From assembly GCA_017937135.1 (NCBI GenBank), contig JAGBEE010000042.1, forward strand, positions 11,885-75,884: a DNA stretch of 64,000 bases. Direction: 5' to 3'. The DNA comes from Clostridia bacterium. Lineage in GTDB: Bacteria; Bacillota; Clostridia; Oscillospirales; CAG-272. Shown in pieces: positions 4,985 through 21,446 of this stretch (the stretch's first letter is position 1; each line of letters begins with the position of its first letter). The notes beneath the pieces were generated by a model that saw only the letters and a program-made list of their open reading frames with translations, was not told the origin of the DNA and searched no databases. The position numbers were made by a program, and so were the translations under genes.

Positions 4985-5141
4985 ATAATCTCCTTTATGA
5001 GCATATAAATTTATACTTATTTTATCATATAAATAATTTTGTGTCAATAAAGGGAGAGGAGTAAAAATGGAAAAATGAAGCTTTATCAAAAGCGAACAGC
5101 AGGGATATAAATAAAAAATTACAAAAAAATGAAAAAAACAC

Positions 5142-5170
5142 TTGACAAGGTAAAATGCTTATGATATAAT
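5142..5170 (+). promoter_or_regulatory. Strong sigmaA promoter for the tRNA pair
   Basis: TTGACA-17 bp-TATAAT with extended -10 TG and upstream A-tracts. Confidence 0.88.
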
Positions 5171-5199
5171 AAGCAAGCATTGAGCGGCAACAAAGAAAT

Positions 5200-5275
5200 G
5201 GCGGAATAGCTCAGTGGCTAGAGCATCCGGTTCATACCCGGCAGGTCATAGGTTCAAATCCCATTTCCGCCACCA
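5200..5275 (+). tRNA. tRNA-Met (CAT), elongator type
   Basis: GGCGGAA/TTCCGCC acceptor stem, CCGG-TTCATAC-CCGG anticodon arm, GGTTCAAATC T-arm, encoded CCA. Confidence 0.93.
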
Positions 5276-5279
5276 TAAT

Positions 5280-5354
5280 GGCCCGTTGGTCAAGCGGTTA
5301 AGACACGGCCCTTTCACGGCTGTAACATGGGTTCGATTCCCGTACGGGTCACCA
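5280..5354 (+). tRNA. tRNA-Glu (TTC)
   Basis: GGCCCGT/ACGGGTC acceptor stem, CTTTCAC anticodon loop, GGTTCGATTCC T-arm, CCA end. Confidence 0.96.
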
Positions 5355-5355
5355 A

Positions 5356-5401
5356 CACAAACAAAAATCGAACACTTTCGGGTGTTCGATTTTTGTTTGT
5401 G
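5356..5401 (+). terminator. Terminator hairpin after the tRNAs
   Basis: 20-bp inverted repeat CACAAACAAAAATCGAACAC/GTGTTCGATTTTTGTTTGTG. Confidence 0.75.
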
Positions 5402-5402
5402 A

Positions 5403-5565
5403 ATGAAGCACACCTGCAGTGCATTAAGACACTTTGTTAATGAAGTCGGCTTCGCCTAATGAAGTCGCTTCGCTAATTATTTTGTGTGCTTCGCTTCATA
5501 CGAACGGAGTGAGTGCTTCATTGTTGCGTAGCAACTGCTTCATATTGACAAAGTCAATGCTTCAT
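5403..5565. repeat. Mirror array A: 4x ATGAAG-type then 4x GCTTCAT with hairpin spacers
   Basis: ATGAAG/ATTAAG at 5403, 5423, 5440, 5459; GCTTCAT at 5493, 5515, 5537, 5559 (22-bp period). Confidence 0.85.
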
Positions 5566-5580
5566 TAAAAGGAGTAATTT

Positions 5581-5928
5581 ATGAAAGACGATAAATTATC
5601 AATACAGTCTATGGATTTTGCTGTATCAATTATTGAGCTTGTAAAAAGCTTAAAGGAAAAGCGAGAGTCTATAATTTCAAATCAAATCGGCAGAAGCGGT
5701 ACAAGCATTGGTGCAAACATTCGTGAAGCTCAATATGCACACGGAAAAGCAGATTTTATCGCAAAGCTTCAAATTGCTCTTAAAGAAGCAAATGAAACAG
5801 GCTATTGGCTTGAATTACTTTTTAGAACAAATTATATTGATGAAAGTACATATAAGTCACTAAACAATGCTTGCACAAGCATTCGTGTAATGCTAATTTC
5901 CTCTATAAATACATCAAAGCAAGGCTGA
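5581..5928 (+). CDS. Four helix bundle protein (23S rRNA IVS protein / bAvd-like family)
   Basis: QIGRSGTSIGANIREA...DFIAKLQIALKEANETGYWLELL family signature; AAAGGAG RBS. Confidence 0.92.
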   Translation: MKDDKLSIQSMDFAVSIIELVKSLKEKRESIISNQIGRSGTSIGANIREAQYAHGKADFIAKLQIALKEANETGYWLELLFRTNYIDESTYKSLNNACTSIRVMLISSINTSKQG

Positions 5929-5946
5929 ATTTTCAACCTTGCTTTT
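5916..5946 (+). terminator. Terminator overlapping the four-helix-bundle stop codon
   Basis: AAAGCAAGGCTGAA-TT-TTCAACCTTGCTTTT. Confidence 0.65.
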
Positions 5947-6265
5947 CTAATATTTCTTTCGCTATTTTGGGGCTGGGTTCGCATTTTTGACCAAGACTGT
6001 TCTCTGCGTCAAGGGGTCCTCAAAACGAAGTATGAGTTTTGGGGTTCACGGGTTGCAAGGATGAGGTCGGGCAAAAATATTCTCTTTAAGAGGCTTTTTG
6101 AATAACACGTGACAAGCAATCTTTTTAAGGAAAGCAATCATTTAAAGACAACTCCTCGTTTATCTTTCTTCATCTAAACTTTTTAGCACGCAAATTTACG
6201 TGCTTTTTGTCAGATTTTCTGCACCAAAAGTATTATCAAAAATATAATAGTAACGGAGGTACATC

Positions 6266-7069
6266 ATGGATAATTTTGTTATAATGGCTTTAATAGCAAC
6301 ATTAGGAACATGGCTTGTTACCGCTTTAGGCGCAGCGTTGGTTGTATTTTTTAAGGCTCCTAATCCTAAAGGTCTAAATGTCATGCTTGGATTTGCCTCT
6401 GGTGTTATGATAGCTGCAAGCTTTTGGTCGCTTTTACAGCCTGCTATTGAGCGCGCAAGGGTGTCTTCAAATATACCTGCATATCTCGTAGCAACAATTG
6501 GCTTTTTGCTTGGCGCTTTATTCATTTGGATATCTGACAAGGCTGTTAATTTGGCAAGAAAAAAAGCAGATATTTCACAAGGGAAGGTCAATGAGCGATT
6601 GCACCGAATTGCAATGCTTGTTCTTTCAATCACACTCCACAATATACCAGAAGGATTAGCTGTAGGCGTTGCATTTGGTGCATTACAGGGTTCCGGATAT
6701 ACGCCAGAGAGCTTAATGGGAGCAATTTCAGTAGCTGTTGGTATCGGCTTGCAGAACTTTCCTGAGGGCGCGGCAGTTTCGGTGCCTCTTAGACGAGAAG
6801 GCTGTTCCAGAAAAAGAAGCTTTTTGCTTGGTCAAGCATCTGGCATGGTAGAGCCGATTGCAGGTGTTGTAGGTGCATTACTCGTTGTCTATGTTGAAGC
6901 AATTTTACCATTTGCCCTATCATTTGCTGCAGGAGCAATGATTTTAGTTGCTGTTCATGAGTTAATTCCAGAGTGCCAAAAAAACCAGAACGAGCAGCCT
7001 TATTTGGCTACTATGGGTATCATACTTGGTTTCGCCGTTATGATGCTATTGGATGTTATGTTAGGTTGA
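6266..7069 (+). CDS. ZIP family metal transporter (ZupT/GufA-like)
   Basis: HNIPEG and QNFPEG motifs, multiple transmembrane helices, GGAGGT RBS. Confidence 0.93.
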   Translation: MDNFVIMALIATLGTWLVTALGAALVVFFKAPNPKGLNVMLGFASGVMIAASFWSLLQPAIERARVSSNIPAYLVATIGFLLGALFIWISDKAVNLARKKADISQGKVNERLHRIAMLVLSITLHNIPEGLAVGVAFGALQGSGYTPESLMGAISVAVGIGLQNFPEGAAVSVPLRREGCSRKRSFLLGQASGMVEPIAGVVGALLVVYVEAILPFALSFAAGAMILVAVHELIPECQKNQNEQPYLATMGIILGFAVMMLLDVMLG

Positions 7070-20908: not shown

Positions 20909-20950
20909 TAGTTTATATTATATTTATGTAAGAAAAAACAGATGCACAAA

Positions 20951-21428
20951 TGCGTGTTATCCTTAACGGAGAACACGCAATGAATTGCAACCTTGCGGTT
21001 GCATGAATTGAAAGCTGTGCTTTCGTGAATTGCCTGCGGCATGAATTGTGCTTTACGGCACATTGGTTGCAATTCAATTCATGTGAGCGACGAATTGCAC
21101 AGCAATTCCGCGAGCAAATCATGGCGGAGCCAATTCATGATGCGTATGCATCAATTCATTCATAAAAACGAACAGAGCAAGAATAGAAGGAGGTTTATCC
21201 TTTCACTCTTGCTCTGTTAGTATAAAGTGATATTCTTTGCTGACGCAAAGAGTGATATTGTCGCACAGCGACAGTGATATTGAAGCCTTGTGGCTTCAGT
21301 GATATTCTATTCGCCCTAAACTTGCGTAGCAAATATAACTCGGCATAAGCCGAATATCACTGCGTAGCAATAGAACTCGCCAAAGGCGAATAGAGTTAGC
21401 GTGATACTCCGTTAAGAGTATCACGCTA
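20951..21428. repeat. Composite non-coding palindromic element: two mirror arrays, a central hairpin and related terminal hairpins in inverted orientation
   Basis: ATGAATTG-type x4 then CAATTCAT-type x4 (20980-21159); AGTGATATT x4 then AATATCACT-type x4 (21226-21397); end hairpins share CTTAACGGAG on opposite strands. Confidence 0.85.
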
Positions 21429-21446
21429 TTGTGCATCTGTTTTTAA

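Follow-up and report, generated by a model that had tools for sequence, protein, structure and literature searches.

Polar, self-complementary arrays of short words and mini-hairpins at terminators of gut Oscillospirales, and the PF05635 gene that often follows them

Introduction

What is an array of repeated short words and small hairpins that lies between a tRNA operon and a small protein gene? The question is raised by a stretch of 64,000 nucleotides from a Clostridia bacterium of the Oscillospirales (assembly GCA_017937135.1, contig JAGBEE010000042.1, positions 11,885 to 75,884), which as a whole is called the window below. In the window, the array follows the genes for tRNA-Met and tRNA-Glu and runs up to the ribosome binding site (RBS) of a gene for a four-helix-bundle protein of the family PF05635. 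The initial annotation had regarded array and gene as one compact module, with the array as the leader of the gene and the protein as the factor that recognises a branched nucleic acid structure.

The array was compared with its relatives in the window's own genome (G000; 1.85 Mb, 93.7% complete) and in a family sample of 201 genomes. The arrays are a real, structured, polar and multicopy module, and they constitute a family of modular self-complementary hairpin arrays of gut Oscillospirales, i.e., of metagenome-assembled genomes (MAGs) labelled Acutalibacteraceae, Oscillospiraceae or Eubacteriales. The PF05635 gene is a frequent neighbour of the arrays, but not their dedicated partner. Our best explanation, to which we assign a probability of about 0.5, is that the array is a mobile, self-folding, terminator-associated structural module, comparable to the repetitive extragenic palindromic (REP) elements, bacterial interspersed mosaic elements (BIME) and BOX elements of other bacteria.

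Organization of the focal locus

The focal locus comprises the following features, given with their positions in the window:

5142..5170, + strand: promoter of the tRNA operon (TTGACA-17-TATAAT with TG), identical to the consensus at 12 of 12 positions and serving tRNA-Met and tRNA-Glu
5200..5354, + strand: tRNA-Met (5200-5275) and tRNA-Glu-UUC (5280-5354), detected with ARAGORN and matched by the Rfam tRNA model with 66 and 60 bits
5356..5401, + strand: intrinsic terminator hairpin with a perfect 20-bp stem (100% complementary), a 6-nt loop, an A-tract before it and a T-tract after it
5402..5483, + strand: left half of the array, with ATGAAG at 5403, 5440 and 5459 and the degenerate ATTAAG at 5423
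5409-5422, 5448-5456 and 5466-5472, + strand: short hairpins between the words of the left half, which covary (helices 1-4)
5484..5492, + strand: centre of the array, GTGTGCTTC, complementary to 5405-5413 (GAAGCACAC, the first word together with the 5' arm of hairpin 1)
5493..5566, + strand: right half of the array, with GCTTCAT four times (5493, 5515, 5537, 5559) and three hairpin spacers (helices 5-7)
5500-5514, + strand: first spacer of the right half, the conserved hairpin with tandem G.A/A.G
5567..5928, + strand: RBS (AAAAGGAG) and gene for a PF05635 four-helix-bundle protein of 115 aa (open reading frame (ORF) 5581-5928, ATG at 5581)
5916..5945, not assigned to a strand: hairpin across the stop codon of the gene, terminator-like on the - strand; end of the inserted unit; the similarity to the copy in another genome (G014:C60) stops at 5946

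The GCTTCAT words of the right half are spaced at an exact period of 22 nt. The palindromic spacers include GGC-TTC-GCC at 5448-5456, GTTGC-GTA-GCAAC at 5523-5535 and ATTGAC-AAA-GTCAAT at 5544-5558, and the final word stops at 5565, 1 base ahead of the A-run/GGAG of the RBS. All coordinates that had been reported for the four ATGAAG-type words, the four GCTTCAT words with their 22-bp period and the end of the array 1 nt before the A-run were found to be correct, with the word at 5423 reading ATTAAG. The mirror symmetry that had been ascribed to the array was not recovered: the actual symmetry is that of a reverse complement, and the array is polar.

The word GCTTCAT has 16 matches on both strands of the window, compared with 13 expected, and 5 of the 16 fall into 5403-5565. 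The spaced pair GCTTCAT-N15-GCTTCAT occurs three times in the whole 1.85-Mb genome, each time at the focal array, and its reversed control not once. The focal array is thus beyond chance. Rfam had no match inside 5407-5566; with E values of up to 1 admitted, microRNA models were the sole non-tRNA matches, and these lay on the terminator hairpin.

The terminator at 5356-5401 looks bidirectional, because it has an A-tract before and a T-tract after the stem. A consensus scan of the + strand between 5171 and 5580 revealed no promoter-like site, so that the promoter of the tRNA operon is the sole consensus-like one ahead of the PF05635 gene on this strand. As the gene lacks a promoter of its own, its expression, if any, would be possible only by read-through, with the array as leader. 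RNA run X15 covers the tRNA genes only, and six RNA runs contain about 5-6% of the sequence words of 5150-6150, which is uninformative with respect to the array.

Folding of the array

Base pairs were counted in the seven local hairpins of an alignment (A1) of the 13 arrays closest to the focal one. The hairpins were paired to 93.9%, compared with at most 47% in slid controls. At 9 of the 27 pairs both sides were altered in a compensatory manner, and none of 500 shuffles reached this value. For example, ATTGAC/GTCAAT was replaced by ATTAAC/GTTAAT, ATTGGC/GCCAAT or AATCAC/GTGATT. The spacers had been described as different short hairpins, and both the presence of the named palindromes and the compensatory changes in the 13 arrays bear this out. 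Helices 5-7 of the right half include G.U pairs on the + strand, and one hairpin of this half keeps a tandem G.A/A.G next to a covarying pair.

A second type of pairing connects the 5' end of the arrays with their centre. In 54 of 95 distinct arrays these two parts were perfectly complementary over 9 nt or more, while the mean was 6.5 arrays when the 5' end was paired with the centre of another array; 35 different paired words were found. In the focal array, the pairing of 5405-5413 with 5484-5492 and the local hairpin 1 are mutually exclusive. Another long-range pairing, between 5431-5441 and 5544-5554, was proposed by the minimum free energy fold and was rejected, as it is not kept in close relatives and the local hairpin is.

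The mismatches in the stems were different for the two halves. In the right half, G.T was found 17 times versus 4 times A.C, and G.A 70 times versus no C.T, while A.C was found 11 times versus a single G.T in the left half; these counts are small and stem from related sequences. The opposite bias indicates that each half reads best on the strand that leads away from the centre, i.e., the - strand in the case of the left half and the + strand in that of the right half. Compared with shuffled sequences, the fold of the focal array had a z value of -4.26 for RNA of the + strand, and the - strand was unremarkable (z -1.39).

The array family

The arrays of the family sample share one build: three to four short words with mini-hairpins are followed by the centre and then by three to five reverse-complement words with longer mini-hairpins. 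The word is (A/G)TGA(A/T)G or a variant thereof, and a unit consists of a word of 5-8 nt and a hairpin of 13-17 nt. ATGAAG, GTGAAG, ATGATG and GTGATG are the lineage variants found beside the gene, and TGAAAT(C), TGATAT, ATGAATTG and GTGATATT were found at other sites. At least eight word types exist, and the right half carries the reverse complement in each case. The polarity is also apparent from the spacing, which in 101 arrays had a mode of 22 nt in the right half and was 18-20 nt in the left half.

Three-word patterns of the CTTCAY type were present in 61 and those of the CATCAY type in 75 of the 201 genomes, and the reversed controls were near zero. Among 731 periodic 5-mer clusters in G000, 28 had a reverse-complement cluster within 120 nt, compared with 0 for both the reversed and the complemented controls. 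Many arrays are situated at contig ends. With a mixed-word pattern at the class level the listed matches were mostly coding repeats, and clear hairpin arrays were seen only in G323 and G565 among the matches shown; therefore, the counts given here refer to the family alone.

Some runs are one-directional. In G098 (C1:7-364), the 22-nt unit of word and hairpin follows itself in one direction, with at least seven matches in a row among the matches listed, and such runs are present also on C7 of this genome. At locus L139, seven one-directional units lie beside a PF05635 gene. Arrays can therefore grow by tandem duplication, and the two-sidedness is not obligatory.

Arrays without the gene, and elements in terminator loops

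G000 contains at least seven further arrays that are remote from its single PF05635 gene and use other words. In G134, ten array loci were fetched, none of which adjoins a homologue, and the genome has one PF05635 gene. In G063, G141, G149 and G227 (91-94% complete) arrays are present and no PF05635 match was found. One of the arrays of G063 (L152) follows a tRNA-Thr gene and its terminator, again with no gene.

Six gene-less copies of the CATCAY type in G000 (contigs C1, C5, C13 with two copies, C17 and C33) align over about 420 nt with 84-97% identity. They begin with a terminal hairpin and the array, continue with a terminator of their own and, optionally, an extra hairpin, and close with a right module, the end of which repeats the left end in inverted and imperfect form. 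Further elements with the same terminal hairpins exist. The 11 gene-less elements examined in G000 are 270-505 bp long and have terminal hairpins and imperfect inverted ends of about 20 bp. Inverted repeats of 7-10 nt flank 10 of the 11; among the flanks that were printed, at least seven have a T-run past the 3' arm. The flanking repeats correspond to the arms of a host terminator that the element has split, so that the gene-less copies are elements resembling miniature inverted-repeat transposable elements (MITEs) that land in terminator loops. The comparison of related genomes is in line with this: at the C33 locus, three genomes of the same genus (G009, G005 and G017) have a gap of 88-97 nt with a plain terminator, and G000 has, between the same two genes, an element of 415 nt. 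Small size, multiple copies, lack of a transposase, inverted ends, and filled versus empty sites place the gene-less elements among the MITEs.

One such element lies in the window itself:

20950-21430: composite element with two arrays, in the order terminal hairpin, array ATGAATTG/CAATTCAT, internal terminator, array GTGATATT/AATATCAC, terminal hairpin

It splits a host terminator stem of 9 bp, AGATGCACA / TGTGCATCT, which is followed by a T-run. When folded as a whole (20932-21446), the element leaves the host stem closed, whichever of the two strands is considered (z -14.4 and -15.3).

Association with terminators is general: a terminator lies directly upstream of at least 69 of 83 gene-linked arrays, and the gene-less arrays of G000 carry their own. 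The genome was also searched for enzymes that might mobilise the elements. A Y1/HUH transposase (PF01797) was not found in G000 in a search that matched 6 of 14 control genomes, and a reverse transcriptase (PF00078) was not found in this 93.7%-complete genome. Six tyrosine recombinase genes are present, all on contigs other than that of the window. Outside of the window, at C17:6918-7124, a weak and partial match to the N-terminal part of the IS110-type DEDD/RuvC-like domain was seen inside an open frame of 1477 aa.

The focal array and gene as an insertion

The initial annotation had proposed to compare the interval after tRNA-Glu among relatives, and presence and absence were indeed seen. 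Fourteen relatives of the same genus have tRNA-Glu followed by a species-specific terminator, with neither array nor gene. In at least seven of the fourteen (L013, L014, L016-L018, L021, L022) the terminator is followed by a conserved structured element, which consists of the core GGGTTCGCATTTTCGACC...GGTCGGGCGAAAAT in an outer CCGTAC...GTACGG frame and had no match to an Rfam family. A remnant of this element is present in the window at about 5960-6110, after the PF05635 gene and ahead of a ZIP gene at 6266. The unit 5402-5946 therefore sits between the terminator and the remnant, and the sequence comparison indicates that array and gene were gained between the tRNA-Glu terminator and the older conserved element. 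Unlike the gene-less MITE-like elements, the unit has no terminal hairpins.

Copies of terminator, array and gene with 92-95% identity are present in G014, G007 and G018, and in two of them the gene is internally deleted; the copy on G014:C60 matches window positions 5277-5946 at 94%. Another array of G014 is gene-less, with a terminator at its end. L008 (G007:C279) and L009 (G018:C90) are near-identical copies of the focal unit with an internally deleted or truncated PF05635 gene, and the deletion in L008 lies between two short direct repeats. As the genes are deleted or truncated beside intact arrays, the gene decays and the array stays.

Decayed 3' parts of tRNA-Glu of 26-35 nt were found directly before terminator and array in L058, L055 and L008. 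In L058, the fragment lies about 165 nt past an intact tRNA-Glu gene, a signature of small insertions at the 3' end of tRNAs. At first sight, the fragments (L008, L009, L055, L058) suggested that the unit carries a tail of the tRNA along when it moves; this idea was dropped, as remnants of the att type, left by other insertions, are the more likely source, and the fragments are not counted as evidence for mobility of the arrays. A hairpin of about 45 nt, GGGGTCCTCAAAACGAAGTATGAGTTTTGGGG..., at 6007-6053 of the window is a multicopy insert, with four copies of 98% identity in G002 and others in relatives; four of the six aligned gene-less elements of G000 also contain related copies.

The PF05635 gene and its association with arrays

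The focal ORF matches PF05635 with an E value of 7e-29 (100.6 bits, cut-off 33.8) over profile positions 8-105 of 106, which verifies the initial assignment to the four-helix-bundle proteins of this gene beside tRNA-Glu (5280-5354). The closest solved structure is PDB 2RLD (E 3.5e-34). To our knowledge, most PF05635 members have no known function. A profile search of G000 yielded a single match, and homologues of the focal protein are encoded in 110 of the 201 genomes of the family sample, with up to 10 per genome.

The best 30 homologue loci repeat one architecture, i.e., tRNA, terminator, array, gene, with the exception of a few contig ends and degenerate copies; a tRNA gene was present at 23 of the 29 loci scanned. 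A second, independent set comprised 80 close homologues, which are at least 81% identical and stem from animal-gut MAGs (labels Acutalibacteraceae, Oscillospiraceae and Eubacteriales). The initial annotation had suggested a survey of the upstream regions of Clostridia homologues. The array was present in 64 of the 66 that have at least 300 nt of upstream sequence, and a co-oriented tRNA gene was found within 420 nt in 54 of these loci, for 13 amino-acid types. ATGAAG as well as GTGAAG arrays occur beside proteins of 81-87% identity. Genome-wide, two or more pattern matches were found in 61 of 110 genomes with the gene versus 15 of 91 without it; owing to the relatedness of the genomes the comparison is not independent, and some of the matches in gene-less genomes are coding repeats.

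The distance between array and start codon was 39-96 nt for 79 of 96 gene-linked arrays. Within this gap, 64 of the 79 have a sigma-70-like promoter, and 30 of these promoters agree with the consensus at 11 or more of its 12 positions. At the six loci for which the position was printed, the -35 box begins at or just past the last word. The array is therefore mostly upstream of the promoter and outside of the leader. The remaining 17, which include the focal locus and its closest relatives, have a gap of 16-24 nt and no promoter. Hence the array would be a leader in the focal lineage, where it abuts the RBS with no promoter in between, provided that transcription passes the terminator, and the claim does not extend to the other loci. 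The idea of one module fared similarly: it agrees with the array at 64 of 66 homologues, but the arrays without the gene in G000, in G134 and in the four genomes without a PF05635 match speak against it as a general explanation.

An ORF follows the PF05635 gene at 72 of the 80 close-homologue loci. Its start overlaps the stop of the PF05635 gene by 4 nt in 29 of the 72 cases and lies within -20 to +10 nt in 40 (loci L066-L133), and the tail of the PF05635 gene encodes its Shine-Dalgarno sequence. The 42 downstream ORFs that were scanned are very diverse. They include GNAT (3), WapI-like immunity (2) and AAA_18-like (2) proteins as well as NUDIX, MazG, DUF4279, TetR, MaoC and metallophosphatase families, and 21 had no Pfam match. 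By eye, a conserved region rich in T and C, about 60 nt long, was seen after the downstream ORFs at 15 or more of 33 loci, and at no fewer than 10 of the 33 a new terminator with its array comes next, frequently with a different type of word. Array, small ORF and array form tandem units at tRNAs, in runs of only 1-3 units; just 6 of 79 loci have one more cluster of words in the 420 nt behind the gene.

Many of the tRNA-linked terminators (e.g., at L027, L042, L050 and L053) share the inner hairpin TTTGTC-TACC-GACAAA, while the outer stem varies and covaries, so that the shared part looks like a small palindrome in the loop of different terminators. In G000, TTTGTC...GACAAA has two unrelated matches, none of them in a terminator.

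A proposed structural module at terminators

The explanation that we favour builds on the observed anatomy, covariation, copy number and setting of the arrays, on the insertion into terminator loops, and on the arrays without a gene. The array would act as a structural module that is neither coding nor protein-specific. Its two halves would zip together, with local folding of the hairpins; inserted beside or into a terminator, it would therefore remain a closed, compact domain that insulates the transcription units on both sides. The arrays always adjoin an intrinsic terminator, and they do so in two settings. One is directly past the terminator of a tRNA operon, usually with a PF05635 gene next, with or without its own promoter. 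The other is inside MITE-like elements in the loop of the terminator of a host gene. We infer that RNA is the folded form, and that the role is to support termination and insulation.

Several points weigh against this explanation. The tRNA-linked arrays lie behind a strong terminator and, at most loci, ahead of a promoter, so that little RNA may cover the array, and the RNA runs found cover just the tRNA genes. A purely structural role leaves the identity of the words within an array unexplained, as identical words make mis-registered pairing possible and are encountered more typically where proteins bind or where units were duplicated in concert. Nor does it explain why the -35 box abuts the last word. 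This abutment and the retention of the array by 64 of 66 genes suggest a gene-specific function in those copies. The strand pattern of the two halves, which is based on small counts and related sequences, fits a bidirectional element and processes at the level of single-stranded DNA equally well. Lastly, no mobilising enzyme was identified in G000, where Y1 transposases and reverse transcriptases were not found and the six tyrosine recombinase genes lie on contigs other than the window's.

The identical words and the position of the -35 box, which the structural reading does not explain, keep a protein-binding role alive for the gene-linked copies, although we consider it improbable as an account of the arrays in general. 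A PF05635 oligomer would bind the words or hairpins of the adjoining array, either as DNA just upstream of the -35 box, for autoregulation, or as leader RNA in the promoter-less copies, where it would affect the expression of its own and the coupled gene. The retention of the array at 64 of 66 close homologues, its fixed polarity toward the gene and the promoter that follows it at 64 of 79 loci, with the -35 box right after the last word, all fit such a role. Identical words at a distance of about two helical turns (22 nt) are also known from operator or iteron arrays, and the co-occurrence of gene and arrays (61 of 110 versus 15 of 91 genomes, which are related and not independent) points in the same direction. 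Moreover, the related Avd pentamer of a Bordetella phage binds stem-loop RNA (10.1101/2023.10.23.563531). However, arrays are common where the gene is missing: G000 has at least seven extra arrays with other words and one gene, four array-bearing genomes have no PF05635 match, and the tRNA-terminator-array site L152 is gene-less. In addition, the spacer hairpins covary, which operators in double-stranded DNA do not require, and proteins of 81-87% identity are found beside ATGAAG or GTGAAG arrays. Binding by the protein is thus not needed to explain the array family as a whole, and is possible for the gene-linked copies.

A site for recombination or transposition in cis is about equally doubtful. 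Here, a recombinase or transposase supplied in trans would recognise the units of word and hairpin in the form of folded single-stranded DNA, as in the case of REP elements and REP-associated tyrosine transposases (RAYTs), the ends of IS200/IS605 elements, or attC sites. This would explain the spread of the arrays and the exchange of small gene cassettes at tRNA loci. It is consistent with the near-identical copies at unrelated loci (84-97% for the six gene-less copies in G000) and the filled and empty sites, with conserved words that flank variable hairpins, with the strand preference that flips at the centre, and with whole hairpins that differ between arrays otherwise 94% identical. The tRNA-proximal tandem units of array, small ORF and array and the diverse ORFs behind the PF05635 gene (4-nt overlap in 29 of 72, within -20 to +10 nt in 40 of 72), with a next terminator and array in at least 10 of 33, would also be expected. 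On the other hand, neither a Y1/HUH transposase nor a reverse transcriptase was found in the 94%-complete G000, and 0 of its 6 tyrosine recombinase genes are on the window's contig. Furthermore, the ends of the MITE-like elements are separate terminal hairpins with the arrays lying internally, and word clusters rarely recur behind the gene (6 of 79 loci, within 420 nt).

A stand-alone small RNA, e.g., a sponge that presents single-stranded words to an RNA-binding protein or to complementary RNAs, is very unlikely. It would fit the intrinsic terminator that comes after the gene-less arrays of G000 and L006 on the array's + strand, the fold of the focal RNA, which is better on the + strand than on the - strand (z -4.26 versus -1.39), and the tetraloop-like and tandem G.A hairpins. 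However, no promoter was seen upstream of arrays, which lie directly past stop codons or terminators, no Rfam match was obtained, and the left and right words are mutually complementary and would therefore not stay single-stranded.

A wider proposal goes beyond the structural module, and we put it forward only tentatively, with the odds clearly against it. The arrays might represent an undescribed class of mobile elements directed at the RNA hairpins of highly expressed genes, either at the apical loop or at the 3' flank, with PF05635 genes as passengers or helpers. Intrinsic terminators and the ends of tRNA operons would be the targets, and the elements would persist at these sites owing to the zipper arrays, which would refold the insertion into a closed domain. 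If so, the PF05635-bearing intervening sequences (IVS) at the tips of 23S rRNA hairpins would be explained as well. In a bolder form, the PF05635 oligomer may bind the hairpin array and take part in mobilisation or maintenance.

If the arrays are structural modules, gut Oscillospirales hold many structured and mobile modules between their genes, in and next to terminators and tRNA operons, which form a large layer missing from current annotation. The arrays break assemblies, and they probably also shape the formation of 3' ends and the insulation of operons in organisms for which no genetics exists. They also offer an entry point to PF05635, as one subfamily nearly always follows a tRNA terminator and an array, usually has a strong promoter and is often coupled to diverse small genes. 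The filled and empty terminator-loop sites of close relatives make insertion at the tip of RNA hairpins directly testable, a feature that is likewise unexplained in the IVS of 23S rRNA.

Comparison with known systems

Titles and abstract openings of the literature yielded nothing on such arrays or on PF05635 genes beside tRNAs, which does not by itself show that they are unpublished. The arrays were set side by side with known systems. In the diversity-generating retroelement (DGR) of a Bordetella phage, a pentamer of Avd binds an 11-bp stem-loop RNA via flipped-out bases (10.1101/2023.10.23.563531). The focal protein has the same four-helix-bundle fold family as Avd. In contrast, no reverse transcriptase was found in G000, and the arrays have many short hairpins instead of one 11-bp stem; judged by the reverse transcriptase, the locus is not a DGR.

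Clustered regularly interspaced short palindromic repeats (CRISPR) have direct repeats of about 23-50 nt and non-palindromic, unique spacers, while the arrays have repeats of 5-8 nt, self-complementary spacers of 13-17 nt and inverted halves, and are thus not CRISPR arrays. Integrons resemble the tRNA loci in that a promoter and a short leading ORF are followed by diverse, often coupled small genes, and in that structured variable sites contain conserved words. They differ in that no integrase lies beside the arrays, that the units are much shorter than attC sites and that the cassette runs comprise 1-3 units; judged by the integrase, the arrays are not integrons.

The IVS of 23S rRNA can carry an ORF of PF05635. 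The protein family is thus the same, the element likewise lies by the gene of a stable RNA, and the array elements at the tip of an RNA hairpin also keep the basal stem. However, the focal gene lies after tRNAs and not within a 23S rRNA gene, and it is not situated between the halves of the array. No rRNA matches were found in 5000-6400, and the focal unit is not an IVS of 23S rRNA.

BOX elements of Streptococcus pneumoniae, like other modular MITE-like repeats, consist of modular subunits in variable number, have a strong predicted structure, and are intergenic and multicopy, without a transposase of their own. By description and not by comparison of sequences, the arrays share the modular build, the strong predicted structure, the intergenic location, the multiple copies and the lack of an own transposase. 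They differ in that the elements have terminal hairpins and that 10 of 11 are inserted into the loop of a terminator.

REP, BIME and REPIN elements of Enterobacteria and Pseudomonas are palindromic units with a conserved flanking word; they occur in both orientations, in many copies, and intergenically at the 3' ends of transcription units. REP and BIME are thought to be structural elements with a stabilising or topological role. As the Y1 transposase was not found in G000, the arrays are not assigned to the REP-RAYT systems. They also differ from REP and BIME in that their units are far smaller, that a block of 3-4 is followed by an inverted one of 3-5, that the centre pairs with the 5' end, and that the word varies. 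Nevertheless, by general description and not at the level of sequences, the arrays likewise combine palindromic units with a word, form inverted clusters, and are multicopy and intergenic at 3' ends. A REP unit is a palindrome of 20-40 nt with a 5' tetranucleotide, arranged in inverted doublets, and the arrays consist of a word plus a hairpin of 13-17 nt in inverted blocks, i.e., they follow a similar logic with another size and number.

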